Shown: positions 6,534 to 47,216 of the stretch, one piece after another
How the letters are laid out: each line of letters begins with the position of its first letter
Position numbering within the stretch: position 1 is the stretch's first letter
Virus record (IMG/VR): IMGVR_UViG_3300037067_009374
Coordinates: 1-64,000 of that record
Length of the DNA: 64,000 nucleotides
Source of the DNA: a virus
Taxonomy: Duplodnaviria > Caudoviricetes
Direction: 5' to 3' (one strand)
Made by a program: the position numbers and the translations under genes
The notes under the pieces: generated by a model
What the model was told of the DNA's origin: nothing
Seen by the model: only the letters and a program-made list of their open reading frames with translations
Database searches by the model: none

Positions 6534-7112
6534 ATGTCGGGACCTACCATTAAAGATTCTGGCACACTTGCTCTTGGACTTGCTCAGGTTCGTGTTATTG
6601 CTTCAGCAGCAAATATTGCAAAGCCTGGAGTAGCATCGACAGCATCAGATAGTATCGGGGCACTGGCAAGTACCAAGTTCACAGCAGAGGTTGAGTTCTG
6701 GCGTCATGAGTCAGGTTTCCCCCTCAAAGAGGATTCAATTATTCCTCTTCGTGAAAAAGCTCATCTTGAATGTCAGTATGAAGAAATTAAACCTTATACC
6801 CTCGCGCTTGCACGAGGTTTTGATCCAACTACGGAAAGTTATACTGCCAGTAGCGGCGAAGTAACACTTGGTAACATGGCTGCTCCTGAATATGTTCGTA
6901 TGGAAGCTCAGTATACTTTTCCCAGTGGTTCTAATTACATGTACATAATTTTCCCTCGTGCTCAGGTTAGTGCATCTACTGAACTTGACCTAGCGAAGGA
7001 AGACAATGCGAAACCTACTCTTACCTTCGAATCTAAACTTTCGGATTCGGGTGTTACGGGTGGTAATGCAATTTGGGATGATAAACCCCTCGGTCATATC
7101 ATCTTTACCTAA
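6534..7112 (+). CDS. Major tail tube protein
   Basis: Strong GAAAGGAG RBS; position before chaperones and tape measure; IIFPRAQVSASTELDL-type C-terminal strands. Confidence 0.75.
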   Translation: MSGPTIKDSGTLALGLAQVRVIASAANIAKPGVASTASDSIGALASTKFTAEVEFWRHESGFPLKEDSIIPLREKAHLECQYEEIKPYTLALARGFDPTTESYTASSGEVTLGNMAAPEYVRMEAQYTFPSGSNYMYIIFPRAQVSASTELDLAKEDNAKPTLTFESKLSDSGVTGGNAIWDDKPLGHIIFT

Positions 7113-7142: not shown

Positions 7143-7664
7143 ATGCCGGAGAATAATTCTGTAATGAATCCTAGGATACGAAGTGTGGAAGTTGGCATTC
7201 GTGATCTTAGGAAAATTTCTATTTACCCTCTCAGTGTTCGTGATCAATTGAAAACTAAAGCATTGATCAAAGACTCACTGGAAACTTTGCTTAAAGCAGA
7301 TACAGAATCACTAACAGAACTTTCTTTTGTGTCTCATTTTGTGAATACCATTACAGAACATATTGATACCATCTTTACATTCATCACTGATAAGGTAGTA
7401 GATAAAGATGGGAATTCCATTGATCTACTTCAAGATATGGACAATACTCAATTTGCTGAAATAGCACAAATAGTTTACGAGGTGAATTACAGTTTTTTGG
7501 CAAAAACGGTAATGAGCTTCCTGGAGAAAGCAAAAGCAAAGATGGAAGAGTTTCAGCCGATCTCGAACCCGTCTCATTTGATGAAGCCATTGCCGAATGT
7601 TGTATCCAATATGGATATCGACCCTACGATTTCTTTGGAAAAGGATTTAGAGAAGGCGGAATAA
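7143..7664 (+). CDS. Tail assembly chaperone (gpG-like)
   Basis: Lies between the tube and tape measure genes; contains slippery T TTT TTG. Confidence 0.75.
   Translation: MPENNSVMNPRIRSVEVGIRDLRKISIYPLSVRDQLKTKALIKDSLETLLKADTESLTELSFVSHFVNTITEHIDTIFTFITDKVVDKDGNSIDLLQDMDNTQFAEIAQIVYEVNYSFLAKTVMSFLEKAKAKMEEFQPISNPSHLMKPLPNVVSNMDIDPTISLEKDLEKAE
7493..7499 (+). other. Programmed -1 ribosomal frameshift site (T TTT TTG)
   Basis: X XXY YYZ heptamer in the correct phase; the -1 frame is open from about 7460 to 7933. Confidence 0.7.
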
Positions 7665-7933
7665 CCATGAATCAATTATTCTTCTTGTTTGAGTATTCCC
7701 AAGATAAGGAGAATAAAATGTTGAAAGCTTCAGCATCAATGCATGGAATACAAGTAGATGATTCGGATGGTAAAGTGAAAACAAAACAAAAGAAAAATGA
7801 TTTTTTGTTTCAAGATCCAAAAGAATACGAAAATCTCTCCCAAGAAGAGAAAGAAAGAAAGACAAAAGAAATGATGGGACATTTCTCTAAGTTTGCTTCC
7901 GATCCTATACGATATACTAGGAAAAAGGGTTAA
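7499..7933 (+). CDS. Tail assembly chaperone gpGT C-terminal part (-1 frame; includes track ORF 7667..7933)
   Basis: -1 frame reads GKNGNELPGESKSKDG...FDEAIAECCIQYGYRPYDFFGKGFREGGITMNQLFFLFEY. Confidence 0.7.
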   Translation, partial: GKNGNELPGESKSKDGRVSADLEPVSFDEAIAECCIQYGYRPYDFFGKGFREGGITMNQLFFLFEYSQDKENKMLKASASMHGIQVDDSDGKVKTKQKKNDFLFQDPKEYENLSQEEKERKTKEMMGHFSKFASDPIRYTRKKG

Positions 7934-7937
7934 TTGA

Positions 7938-10900
7938 ATGGCTAAAACTCTCAGTCTCGGTACATTATTTATAGGTGAGATTGATGCAACCTTCACAAGT
8001 GCTGTATCTGAATTAAAGAAGATGCTTGGTACTTTGAATGGAGCTTTGGGAGGTATTGGTTCTGCTGCTGAAAAGCAAAGATCAGCATTAACTTCTCTTG
8101 GAAGTGATATGACTGAATTTCAACTTGCTATGGGCAGAGCTACTAATCAATCTAAAGCATTTCAAAAAGCACTGTCTGATGGTGCTGATAAATTTCAAGC
8201 ATATTCTGGTACAGCATTAAAAGATTTAGAATCAGGATTGTATCGGACTGAGAGAGCTATTCAAGCCCATGCAAAATCTATGTCTACCATGAATCAAGAT
8301 GGTAAGACTTGGGCTGAAAACGCTGATAGATTAAACATGATGCTTCAAGAAAGGGAAGGAATACTAAGATACAACAAGAAAGGAATTGAACAAGTAGCAC
8401 AAACTCAAAAAGTTTTGGGAGATAGTACAAAATCTCTTGGAAGTGATTTAACTGAATATCAGATGGCAATGGGTAGAGCATCAAATCAATCTTCTAAATT
8501 TAGGGAAGGATTAGCAAAATTAACAGAAGTGTTTGGTAAGCAAGGAGCGGGGTTAAAATTTGCAGAGGCAATGTCATATCGGACTGAGAAAGCAATCATA
8601 GCTCATGGTAGGGCTATGAATGAAAATAAACAAGATGGAGATGCTTGGGTAAAGCATGTAGATCGTGCAAATTTAGCTTTGGATGAATATAGAGGAAATT
8701 TAAATTATACAAAGAAAGGACTAGCTGATCTTACTGAGGCCCAACAAAAAGCTTTAGATATGGGAGGTAGAGCACAAGGGGTTTTTTCAAAGCTTGGTGA
8801 TACTATTAAGTCTATGGCTTACTGGGGTATCGCAGCTTCAGCGATCTATGGGACTATTAGAGCACTAAAAGAAGGTGTTCAAAATGTAATGGAGTTTGAT
8901 CAATCTTTGAAAAATCTCCAAGCTATTTCTTCTGCTTCGGATGCAGAAATAATGGTTATGGAAAAAACAATAAAAAGACTTGCAGCTACAACAAAATATT
9001 CTGGACAAGAGATAGCAAATGGTATGACTATTGTAGCACAAGCAGGCTTCTCTGCTTCTGAATCAATAGATACGATGAAATCTATTGTGTTACTTGCTAC
9101 AGGTACATTGTCAGGAATGTCAGAGACCACTGACCTTTTAACTACTGTCATAAGAGCTTTTGAATTGAAAGCTAGTGACTCCAGTAGAGTTGCAGATGTT
9201 ATGGCAGCAGCGGTAAATAAATCGAAACTTGATGTTGATAAATTAAGGATTGCATTTGGTTATTTAGCCCCCATAGCTTCCGAAGCTGGAATTTCACTTG
9301 AAGAATCAGCAGTAGCAACAATGTTACTTGCAGATAATGGTTTGAAAGCTTCCACAATAGGTACTGCTTTTAGACAAGTTCTTGCCAGACTCATATCTCC
9401 AACTGATGCTCTATCTGCAAAGTTTCAATCTATGGGTGCAGATATGACAAGACTTGATCCTTCAACAAATACTTTGAAAACTGTTCTTACTGAACTTGCT
9501 AGAGTTGCACCAGATGCTTCAGCAGCATTTGAATTGTTTGGACTTCGTGGTGCTCCTGCTGTTGTAGTTCTCACTAGAGCAATGCAAGAAGGCGGAAAAG
9601 TATTTGATGAATACATGAATAAGGTTTACGAAGTAGGTCAAGCGCAAGAAATGTCTGATAAACAAATGCAAGGTTTAGCAAATAGATTCAAAAATTTGAT
9701 AAATGTGATTGGATTGCTTACCATATCATTAGGGGAAGGGGGATTAGGATCTTCGTTTGGATTAATTATTGATCTTCTTACTTCTTTTGTAAAACTCCTT
9801 ACCACAGTAAGTTCAAGTCTTGCTGGTTCTTTTTTTATAGCCATGTCCTCTGCTGCTGCTGTTACTTGGTTATTTGGTAAAGCACTTACTGGGGTGGGTC
9901 TTGCTGTTTGGATAGATAATCTCGTTACAACATGGACAGTTCAAAGAACTCTATTTGGTACAATGGGTGCTTTGATAGGTATCACTAAAAGGTGGACAGA
10001 AACAATTGTATCTTTTATTGCTGCAAATTGGGTAATAGCTTTAGGTGCTCTTGTTGGTGGCATATTCATGCTTATCAAAGCTGAAAGAGAACTTGCAGAT
10101 ACAGCTTCAGCAGCAGCAATAGAAACAACAAAGCACAAGGATAAACTAGAAGATTATCGAGCTTCATTGAATAAATTGAATCCAGAGTCCAAAGAATATC
10201 AAGCTACTCTTAAAAGACTTGCTACGGAATATCCAAAACTTAGAGATGAAATTGATTTAGTAACAGGCAGATTTTATGATCAAAAATCAGGGTTGCAAGC
10301 TTTAGATACTCAGATAGAGAGTTACCATATTAAAGCTATCGAACAAGAAATTGTAGCTTTAGGTGCTCTTGCAAAAGCTTACCTCCAAAGTGAGAGTGCT
10401 TTAGGCCAATGGATATTCAGTAGAAAGTCTCCTCAAGAACAACTTGAGATGTTGAAGAAAAAGATTGGGACACTCTTACCAGAACTTAAAAATCTTGGAA
10501 TAACGAATGAATCCACAGCGGAACAAATTGAATCTGCTTGGGAGAAGTTTAAACCTGGTATTTTTGATGCTTTTAATGCCAGACAAGTTGAAGCTATTAT
10601 TGATGCAACAATGGCGAAGCTTCAAGACCAAGCTGATGCAGCAATAGCAGCAGAGAAACAAATAGCAGAAGAAAGAAGAAAGTTATCAATTGGTGAAAGA
10701 CAAACAGAAGTAGCTGTTTATTCTGACATTGTAAATCAGGTTGGTGGTGAAAGAAGAAGGCAGACAGAAGAATATGCAGCAGAATTACAAAAACAAATAA
10801 ACGCTCTGGAAAATAAATCAGAACAAGAAGAACAGTCTGAAAGGGGTACTGCTTTAAAGGTATTAAAGATTTGGACAGATAATCTTAAAAAGATAGCGGA

Positions 10901-33830: not shown

Positions 33831-33976
33831 AAACTGTGATGGGGTGGGACTTGAACCCACAAATTTTAATGAATAATTGACTGGAGGGCGAAACCCACAA
33901 TGGGTATCTATATTCATTAAAACATAGTATGGGATAGGGATACTATACATTACCATTATGCTACCCATCACAGTTT
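33831..33976 (-). ncRNA. tRNA-like RNA 1 (non-canonical; giant variable arm)
   Basis: Acceptor TGATGGG/CCCATCA, D-arm GCAT-AATGGTA-ATGT, 9-nt anticodon loop, 12-bp closed variable arm, T-arm GTGGG-TTCAAGT-CCCAC; no CCA. Confidence 0.75.
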
Positions 33977-45763: not shown

Positions 45764-46327
45764 TTAGTGATTATTAAGGAGAGAAATCTGGATCATTTGT
45801 AAAGCTTTAAGTTCAAGTTCTTTTTCAGTTTTAAATATCCCATCTACAACTGAAGTTGACATAAGCATATTAGGTTGCTTTACTCCCCGAAGTGACATAC
45901 AACCATGACTTGCACTCATGTAAATCATTGCACCTTTTGGTTGAATATACTTTACAAATTGCGTTATTACTTCATGACCTAATTCTTCTTGAAGTTGGGG
46001 TTTCTTAGAGTAATGAATGATACAACGAACAGGTTTACTAGCACCAATCAACAATTCATTTGGTATGTAATAGAACCATGCTTTTCCATGAAATGGAATC
46101 ATATGATGAGAACAAACAGATACAAAATCTATTCTTTCAAGCCCAACTATTTGGTTATAATGTCTACTATTTGGGAAAGTTGTGAACCCTTCAAATTCTG
46201 TGAAAGTATTACAGAGCAATTCTTTCTTGAACATCTTATTCATTCGAATTGCTGTATCTTTTAGATTTGGATCATTTAGATCAAGTCCTAAACTTTCTTC
46301 AAGATACTTTTTTAGGTGCTTACTCAT
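45764..46327 (-). CDS. folE: GTP cyclohydrolase I
   Basis: SVCSHHMIPFHG, IGASK, PQLQE, HGCMSLRGV. Confidence 0.92.
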   Translation of the reverse strand: MSKHLKKYLEESLGLDLNDPNLKDTAIRMNKMFKKELLCNTFTEFEGFTTFPNSRHYNQIVGLERIDFVSVCSHHMIPFHGKAWFYYIPNELLIGASKPVRCIIHYSKKPQLQEELGHEVITQFVKYIQPKGAMIYMSASHGCMSLRGVKQPNMLMSTSVVDGIFKTEKELELKALQMIQISLLNNH

Positions 46328-46345
46328 GATAATCCTTTAATAAAG

Positions 46346-46498
46346 TGATGGGGACAGGATTCGATACCTGCATGAAATATACTGAGGGGCACGACTCCCT
46401 CATTCTGGTCTGACCTCATCCTCAGTGTCTTTAGACGAAGTATATTTCTTACTGTGTGCACTTCAGTTAAGCGTCTATACTCTTCCGCCACCCCATCA
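46346..46498 (-). ncRNA. tRNA-like RNA 2 (non-canonical; giant variable arm)
   Basis: Acceptor TGATGGGG/CCCCATCA, Leu/Ser-like D-arm GCG-GAAGAGTATAGA-CGC, 9-nt anticodon loop, GAAATATACT/AGTATATTTC variable stem, T-arm GCAGG-TATCGAAT-CCTGT; no CCA. Confidence 0.75.
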
Positions 46499-46502
46499 AA
46501 GT

Positions 46503-47216
46503 TTATTCTCCTCGTTCAAAGCGTTCAATCAATGGATCTTTTACTCTTGCTTCTTTAAAGCCTTTTGCTCTCAAGATACAAGCAGGACATTTATCACATG
46601 GGGGATAAACTCCTTCATAACATGTATGAGAATAAGCAAGAGCTTCCATACAACCATCAAACAAAGTGGCAAATTGTACCGTATCTGCTTTAGTAAGATG
46701 CATAAGGGGGGTATGAATTTCAAAAGAGAATCCCATACCTTGTTGTAAGCTTTCTTGCATTGAAGTTATAGTGGCTTGGCGACAGTCGTGGTAGCCGCTG
46801 TAATCTGTTTGACAAACTCCAGCCACTATATTATGAATTTGATGTTTAAAAGCATACATGGCAGCAAGTGTCAGGAAAATCAGATTACGACCAGGAACAA
46901 AAGAAGCAGGTAAATTACCCACTCTGTGTTGTTCTGATATGCTGCTACTTTTATCCAACAGAGCAGAATCGTCAAATTGGGAAAACACATCAGCATTGAT
47001 TAGGTTTCTATTTGACATTGGTATATCTGCTAATGCAAGGATTCTAGCAGCAGATTCGATTTCAATCTTATGTCTTTGTCCATAATTAAATGTTACTGTA
47101 TGAACTTCTTGAAATTGTGACTTTGCCCAAAAGAGGGCAGTGGTACTGTCCTGTCCACCACTTAACAGTACCACTGCCGAATCGGATAGGTTAGTCAACG
47201 AAGACGAATTTCCCAT
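46503..47216 (-). CDS. queC: 7-cyano-7-deazaguanine synthase
   Basis: LLSGGQDS, FNYGQRH, FVPGRN, YHDCR, TCY...PCDKCPAC. Confidence 0.95.
   Translation of the reverse strand: MGNSSSLTNLSDSAVVLLSGGQDSTTALFWAKSQFQEVHTVTFNYGQRHKIEIESAARILALADIPMSNRNLINADVFSQFDDSALLDKSSSISEQHRVGNLPASFVPGRNLIFLTLAAMYAFKHQIHNIVAGVCQTDYSGYHDCRQATITSMQESLQQGMGFSFEIHTPLMHLTKADTVQFATLFDGCMEALAYSHTCYEGVYPPCDKCPACILRAKGFKEARVKDPLIERFERGE

Follow-up and report, generated by a model that had tools for sequence, protein, structure and literature searches.

A tRNA-Leu-like, anticodon-less RNA gene in the queC-folE gap of a phage genome belongs to an apparently undescribed family of phage and prophage RNAs

The 175-nt gap between queC and folE in the phage studied here folds in a cloverleaf-like manner and holds an RNA gene of 151 nt on the minus strand (46347-46497). 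We assign a probability of about 0.6 to the reading that this element is an RNA gene of a tRNA-Leu-derived family, carried as an accessory cassette, whose transcript would undergo tRNA-like maturation into a stable RNA with the variable core as its payload. The window, i.e., the whole stretch of 64,000 nucleotides that was analyzed, constitutes the first 64 kb of a complete phage genome of 91,075 bp with terminal repeats and 35% G+C, and the phage is present in landfill and groundwater metagenomes. The features of the element and of its surroundings are collected in Table 1.

Table 1. Coordinates of the tRNA-Leu-like element, its parts, the flanking genes, and the other tRNA derivative of the phage
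Feature	Position	Strand	Remarks
Whole tRNA-Leu-like, anticodon-less RNA gene	46347..46497	(-)	151 nt; R1 66.2 bits, E 6e-20, model positions 1-128 of 128
Acceptor stem, 5' strand GAUGGGG	46491..46497	(-)	preceded by U(-1) at 46498
U8 G9 and Leu-type D arm GCG / GAAGAGUAUAGA / CGC	46471..46490	(-)	without G18G19
Lineage-specific core, hairpin followed by branched region	46373..46470	(-)	98 nt (99 including U48); MFE fold only
U48, partner of A15 (tRNA-Leu-type Levitt pair)	46372	(-)	U in 70 of 71 type-A members
T arm GCAGG / UAUCGAAU / CCUGU, 8-nt loop	46354..46371	(-)	exact 18-mer in 15 IMG/VR contigs
Acceptor stem, 3' strand CCCCAUC, and discriminator A (46346)	46346..46353	(-)	CUU follows, no CCA
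queC, upstream gene	46503..47216	(-)	Pfam QueC, E 5.9e-67
folE (GTP cyclohydrolase I), downstream gene	45764..46327	(-)	Pfam GTP_cyclohydroI, E 1.4e-42
Copy 1, a different tRNA derivative	33836..33970	(-)	RF00005 38.2 bits; canonical D and T arms

The element begins 5 nt after the queC stop codon (46505-46503), and its end lies 19 nt upstream of the folE ATG (46327-46325), in agreement with the placement given in the original prediction. All genes around it lie on the minus strand, and homologues of queF, queE, and queD are found nearby. No promoter-like site was detected upstream of the element on the gene strand, and cotranscription with queC and folE is therefore likely. The predicted fold of the gap had a minimum free energy (MFE) of -48.9 kcal/mol (z score of -2.71), a value equalled by 2 of 200 shuffled sequences. 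Read from its 5' end, the element runs GAUGGGG-UG-GCG-GAAGAGUAUAGA-CGC and, after the core, U-GCAGG-UAUCGAAU-CCUGU-CCCCAUC, with the 3' acceptor strand following the T arm without a gap. Thus, the acceptor strand at 46497-46491 pairs with that at 46353-46347, and the D stem GCG/CGC encloses a 12-nt loop devoid of GG. An eighth acceptor pair, U46498:A46346, is possible and would give the acceptor sequence originally proposed, UGAUGGG/CCCAUCA; the register of the family is GAUGGGG/CCCCAUC with A as the discriminator base, and to that extent the proposal had to be shifted. The window copy has both U(-1) and the discriminator A, and CCA is not encoded; the 8-nt T loop and the lack of CCA had been correctly noted before. 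What is real and conserved in the element is its T loop, D arm, and acceptor stem.

The lead to the family came from BLAST comparisons of the two tRNA-like elements of the phage with cultured phages, in which a 21-nt match to the T arm in Lactobacillus phage SAC12B, lying inside the tRNA cluster of that phage, was the only match; a D-arm query against cultured phages found none. In IMG/VR, the T-arm 18-mer GCAGGTATCGAATCCTGT occurred in 15 contigs, most of which showed the same succession of a 7-nt acceptor strand, UGGCGGAAGAUAGACGC, a variable middle part, the T arm, and an acceptor strand complementary to the first; the acceptor sequence itself varied between contigs. The reciprocal scan with the D-arm 17-mer yielded 88 stretches. 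Of the members tabulated from these loci, about half have a UAUCRAAY T loop (type A), and in about a third the T arm is of a second type, GGUGAAAGUCC (type B). The Leu-type D arm is the same in type B, the T loop reads UGAAAGU, and CCA was encoded in none of 29 members; this type is common in Paenibacillus prophages, and examples are L141:1021-1104, L215:2991-3125, and L200:447-588.

A covariance model, R1, was built from 24 type-A members of IMG/VR, all from other viral contigs, the window being left out. This model matched the window element from end to end (Table 1) and gave no other match in the phage genome. Full-length UAUCRAAY members scored 58 to 94 bits on it, type B members approximately 26 to 55 bits, and genuine tRNA-Leu genes 25 to 28 bits; the SAC12B element, at 31.6 bits, is a weak member. 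The frame common to the family consists of a 7-bp covarying acceptor stem, U8, a Leu-type D arm lacking G18G19 (D loop GAAGA..UAGA, with no GG), U48, and a T arm with the UAUCRAAY loop. The window element shows this D loop together with U48, a 5-bp T stem, an 8-nt loop of the UAUCRAAY type, and the ungapped 3' acceptor strand. Its exact 12-nt D-loop variant was found in 45 metagenome stretches, 39 of which were R1 matches.

The pairing of the frame was assessed in a set picked by the window-type D-arm 19-mer alone. In this set 98.7% of the cells were paired, compared with 77.5% in shuffles and 27 to 48% when the partners were slid by 1 to 3 columns, and changes on both sides were seen at all seven acceptor pairs and at three of the five T-stem pairs. 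Across alignments, the first one included, six or seven of the seven acceptor pairs had changed on both sides; as the alignments had either been selected for their pairing (A4) or been fitted to the model (A7), the percentage paired is inflated, which does not apply to the double changes. The base 5' of the T stem, a position contained in no search motif, was U in 70 of the 71 type-A members, and U8 and A14-A15 were also kept. The T loop read UAUCRAAY in 70 of the 71 tabulated type-A members and CAUCGAAU in the remaining one. The D arm reads as in bacterial tRNA-Leu except for the missing dinucleotide G18G19, and the T loop corresponds to the canonical UUCRAAU with one A added; the A15:U48 pair is a distinguishing mark of tRNA-Leu. 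Among 45 type-A members, the discriminator base was A in 24 (53%), U occupied position -1 in 22 (49%), and CCA was encoded in 10 (22%, against 1.6% expected by chance); on the grounds of established tRNA biology, these are marks of genes matured by RNase P and at the 3' end. Judged from these sequence comparisons, the structure of the frame is under selection, and we take the family to be descended from a class-II leucine tRNA.

In viral sequences, 113 matches were found in 98 loci. The D-arm 17-mer was also present in 56 loci of bacterial genomes, with 55 R1 matches therein; the carriers belong to Acidobacteriota, Bacteroidota, Bacillota, Chloroflexota, Cyanobacteria, Planctomycetota, Proteobacteria, Patescibacteria, and other phyla. 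Phage genes were recognized in two of the four annotated bacterial contexts. In one context NinG, a large terminase, and a NUMOD4 endonuclease adjoin the member, and in another a thymidylate synthase and a sigma-70-like protein do so. In one genus, 8 of 121 species genomes contained a family member, in a single copy each, and the family is therefore patchy and not part of the core genome. A canonical tRNA is missing from the vicinity of about two thirds of the viral members; the remaining ones are situated in tRNA clusters. Among cultured carriers are Chryseobacterium proteolyticum DDS-02 (L204, 74.8 bits), C. polytrichastri DSM 26899 (L172), Paenibacillus polysaccharolyticus MER 26 (L183), and phage SAC12B, whose host is L. 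brevis. The conservation of gene context, for which a covariance-model search had been proposed as a check, did not emerge: no flanking protein cluster recurred in at least four family loci. Contigs from the metagenomes in which the phage occurs had only the two conserved ends in common with the element, with 41 to 126 nt of different sequence between them.

Rfam 15, searched at the gathering threshold over the whole window, holds no family for this class, and no description was found in the literature surveyed, which left out most subscription journals. Together with the R1 match, these results bear out the central proposal of the original prediction, a structured, tRNA-like, non-decoding RNA class carried by phages. 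The family of phage and prophage RNAs thus appears to be undescribed, a prior description being possible. On one viral contig (L079), a tRNA-Leu(AAG) of normal length (6610-6694) is accompanied by two expanded paralogues (7263-7400 and 7700-7850), all three having GUCAGGG as their acceptor sequence. One paralogue keeps a GG-containing D loop and already has an 8-nt T loop, and the trio looks like an evolutionary series leading from tRNA-Leu to the anticodon-less form.

The part enclosed by this frame is of a different nature. In the tabulated members, the length of the segment from the D arm to U48 lay between about 20 and about 180 nt. No hairpin after the D arm was conserved across the family; many members had none at all, and where one was present its loop comprised 4 to 12 nt. 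In the window element, a hairpin with the 9-nt loop AAGUGCACA lies within 46470-46448 (minus strand), followed by a branched region that is closed, in the MFE fold only, by a stem of 9 to 10 bp. Both structures had been described earlier, as a 9-nt anticodon loop and as a variable arm with a 10-bp stem. The hairpin and the branched region are there, but the 99-nt core had no homologue among about 270 collected loci and is specific to its lineage; since, in addition, no hairpin is shared by the whole family, the labels anticodon loop and variable arm are not justified. In three Chryseobacterium-type members, the core hairpins are maintained by compensatory changes, and on this thin evidence of three sequences the cores appear to be structured and selected locally, within a lineage.

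Two further observations concern the cores. In L091:2720-2866 the core is itself a complete tRNA (RF00005, 43.7 bits, 2766-2838), nested in the tRNA-like frame, and the outer frame ends in an encoded ACCA. For its part, the loop AAGUGCACA of the window element contains a GUGCAC palindrome and is identical to the dimerization-initiation loop of HIV-1 (RF00175). As a kissing hairpin of the HIV-1 DIS type, it scored 16.9 bits (E of 0.99) against a threshold of 35, so that the likeness is one of the loop only, and palindromic 6-nt loops were not enriched in the family (8 observed versus 6.2 expected). The hairpin could form kissing-loop dimers.

The second tRNA-like element of the phage, copy 1, lies upstream of a thymidylate-synthase-like gene (thyA) and had been considered to be of the same design as the element in the queC-folE gap. 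This did not hold. Copy 1 was the only RF00005 match in the phage genome and had no match to R1. Its D and T loops are canonical, and a 78-nt insertion replaces the anticodon and the variable region, with a 6-bp stem bearing the 9-nt loop CCCUAUCCC and a hairpin of approximately 60 nt at the place of the variable arm. No canonical tRNA gene was found in the phage by ARAGORN or RF00005, and ARAGORN, when introns were allowed, forced copy 1 into a tRNA-Gly(CCC) with a 57-nt "intron". In IMG/VR, the D-arm 17-mer of copy 1 lay for the most part in phage tRNA genes of ordinary appearance or else in unrelated sequence, and it did not mark an expanded family. The two copies nevertheless share AAACU-N-UGAUGGG at their 5' ends (46498-46503 and 33971-33976) and CCCCAUCAC at their 3' ends (46343-46354 and 33834-33845), their acceptor registers differing by one base. 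This likeness extends past the mature ends, which suggests that the shared ends arose by duplication or by sequence exchange and not by convergence.

Comparison of the queC-folE slot among related phages showed that its content is exchangeable. In the nearest relative (L062), whose FolE is 99% identical, the 3' end of queC and the 5' end of folE are kept, and the slot contains a 58-aa open reading frame (ORF) (9726-9902) that has a good ribosome-binding site, together with some 100 nt of unrelated sequence (9903-10000). In a contig from run X4, exactly 46339-46501 is replaced by 266 other bases. In a complete relative of 90,361 bp (G001), with a FolE 68% identical, queC stands 9 nt from folE, and the whole genome contains no match to R1 or RF00005 and no thyA-like gene. 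In the 90-kb relative, the queC-like ORF (L063:8789-9991) encodes 400 aa, compared with 237 aa in the window phage, apparently through fusion to an additional N-terminal portion. On this comparison of relatives, we regard the element as a swappable accessory cassette in a variable slot.

The maturation that we propose would proceed as follows. Transcribed together with queC and folE, the element would be cut by host RNase P after U(-1), and host enzymes would trim the 3' end and add CCA after the discriminator A. The excised RNA, of about 150 nt, would then persist as a stable molecule, its tRNA-like upper half serving as a handle for processing, stability, and tRNA-directed proteins and its variable core as a lineage-specific payload, in the manner of a natural "tRNA scaffold". 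The same excision would also sever the message of queC and folE immediately upstream of the ribosome-binding site of folE. A target in trans may be a host tRNA-directed enzyme or a defense factor. Owing to the missing G18G19 and the altered T loop, RNase P, the CCA-adding enzyme, or LeuRS might recognize the RNA less well. Further points against this reading are that the window copy lacks CCA and that its core has no homologue; what we take for a payload might alternatively be tolerated filler.

A bolder form of this proposal, which we put forward only tentatively and consider doubtful, is that phages infecting many phyla use a remodelled upper half of tRNA-Leu as a natural RNA scaffold that is matured and stabilized by host tRNA enzymes, and in some members maybe CCA-tailed or leucylated, and that its core, evolving fast and exchanged horizontally, is an RNA payload acting on tRNA-directed host enzymes or on anti-phage defense. 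The window element would then be a payload carrier riding on an anti-restriction (deazaguanine) operon.

The main rival to a stable payload RNA is pure punctuation of the message, in which a tRNA-shaped cleavage signal acting in cis would let RNase P and 3'-processing enzymes separate the queC and folE messages and define where the folE mRNA starts, the excised RNA having no function. RNase P is known to process polycistronic mRNAs (PMC11143913), both tRNA-like elements of the phage end 19 to 25 nt before a start codon, and co-oriented ORFs flank about 70% of the family members at a distance of up to 300 nt on either side. However, a same-strand ORF starts within 40 nt downstream in only 23% of the members (median distance, 187 nt), the relatives do without any element at the slot, and a bare signal would need neither the Leu-type D arm and U48 nor the encoded CCA of 22% of the members nor structured cores. 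Punctuation thus accounts less well than the maturation of a stable RNA for the frame sequence, the encoded CCA, and the cores, and we consider it unlikely.

Rather unlikely, in turn, is a decaying tRNA-Leu, i.e., functionless filler or a selfish remnant that lost its anticodon arm to insertions. In favor of such a remnant are the unique and unconserved core, the dispensability of the element in close relatives, and the tRNA-Leu(AAG) with its two expanded paralogues on L079, which suggests duplication and insertion. Decay would not be expected, however, to preserve perfect acceptor and T-stem pairing through double changes across phyla, or the same altered D and T loops together with U48 in 70 of 71 members, and in the window copy the pairs of the frame are all intact at a score of 66 bits.

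The original prediction had coupled the element to deazaguanine, folate, and nucleotide metabolism, as an RNA that senses preQ0, preQ1, or folates in cis or in trans, or that binds DpdA or TGT, and regulates folE. The location inside the que operon directly upstream of folE and that of copy 1 upstream of a thymidylate-synthase-like gene speak for such a coupling. Nevertheless, the slot is occupied differently in L062, the X4 contig, and G001, i.e., in the two nearest relatives and a third, metagenomic one, and the link is for this reason unsupported. A scan of 61 other viral queC loci for long-insert tRNA-like elements gave nothing comparable, and no neighbor gene recurred among the family loci. 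The preQ1, THF, and folE-motif riboswitch models of Rfam had no match even at an E value of 10. Bacterial TGT requires U-G-U, and the 9-nt loop contains no UGU, which speaks against the suggested recognition by TGT. A metabolic role is thus very unlikely, and the element is not to be taken as a regulator of the deazaguanine pathway.

A decoding tRNA with an intron or an oversized variable arm is highly improbable. The outline is indeed cloverleaf-like, and AAGUGCACA starts with AAG, a would-be leucine anticodon. Against this, RF00005 had no match in 46300-46540 even at an E value of 10 (threshold, 29 bits), ARAGORN in its default, intron-tolerant, and relaxed modes found nothing at the element, and the family has no conserved anticodon hairpin. 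A canonical tRNA was rejected on account of the 9-nt loop, the D loop without G18G19, the 8-nt T loop, and the absence of a 7-nt loop with U33; a tRNA interrupted by a group I intron was rejected as well, no intron family or group I model matching at an E value of 10, the 99-nt insert being too short, and ARAGORN reporting none with introns of 0 to 200 nt. Finally, a protein-coding reading, in which a GTG ORF of 55 codons (46324-46491, minus strand), with its TGA overlapping the folE ATG, would be a small gene, is scarcely credible: the ATGA overlap is typical of coupled genes and L062 has a real-looking 58-aa ORF in the slot, but the RNA family explains the sequence, the closest GGAG is situated some 17 nt upstream of the GTG, no similarity between the two small ORFs is visible by eye, and member cores occur in all lengths and sequences.

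Standard tRNA finders and Rfam overlook genes of this kind, and annotations of phages and prophages therefore show empty intergenic space or small ORFs in their place. In the slot of L062, the gene caller placed the 58-aa ORF; in the window, the 55-codon GTG ORF runs through the RNA gene, and a protein annotation would easily be made. An invariant tRNA-like frame around a hypervariable core, found across many phyla, suggests that the family interacts with host machinery that is universally conserved. Should the frame undergo tRNA-like maturation, the engineered tRNA scaffold would have its natural counterpart in this family, which would also be a new class of phage small RNA for the conflict between phage and host.

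Among known RNAs, tRNA-Leu (RF00005) is the closest. The family shares with it the 7-bp acceptor stem, U8, the G10-C11-G12...C-G-C D arm with A14 and A15, the A15:U48 pair, the 5-bp T stem, the discriminator A in about half of the members, and CCA in some; it differs in lacking the anticodon arm and G18G19, in its 8-nt T loop, and in an unrelated core of approximately 20 to 180 nt. The species 1 and 2 RNAs of phage T4 (rnaC and rnaD) also invite comparison: they are stable RNAs of 139 and 119 nt encoded beside tRNA genes, with tRNA-like ends that are matured by RNase P. The T4 record gives no function for either, and the T arm of rnaC is canonical. Unlike the family, they have neither the Leu-type D arm nor the 8-nt T loop, and homology was rejected, R1 having no match in T4 68000-74000.

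In tmRNA and YrlA, as proposed here, a tRNA upper half serves as a protein handle joined to a body that is not tRNA. The Rfam models of tmRNA, Y RNA, and YrlA did not match the element at an E value of 10. tmRNA has no D stem and carries a reading frame for its tag, and the ends of YrlA form the Ro-binding stem and not an acceptor stem; a YrlA or Y RNA was rejected, since the ends of the window element form an acceptor stem. The allo-tRNAs are, similarly, noncanonical cloverleaves from metagenomes and phages, often with long extra arms (PMC5389517). They have an 8/4 or 9/3 geometry of acceptor and T stem and keep the anticodon (PMC5389517), whereas the window element is 7/5 (8/5 at most) and has no anticodon loop. 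Thus, no match was found to allo-tRNA, intron-containing tRNA, or YrlA, the described families that the original prediction had named as counting against a new class.

ROOL and GOLLD are structured RNAs of phages and prophages located near tRNA genes (PMC5737381; 10.1101/2024.12.08.627333); they are much larger and bear no sequence relation to the family, and neither was detected in the window or in 18 member loci. Phage K has two abundant lncRNA regions adjacent to tRNA genes (PMC9241854), neither of which matched R1. The nearest parallel in architecture is man-made, and processing and stabilization of the natural members would have to follow the same lines. It is the engineered tRNA scaffold, in which the anticodon arm was reportedly replaced by a structured RNA (Ponchon and Dardel). 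There, the frame of acceptor, D, and T arms secures processing and stability, and we adopt it as the working analogy for the family.
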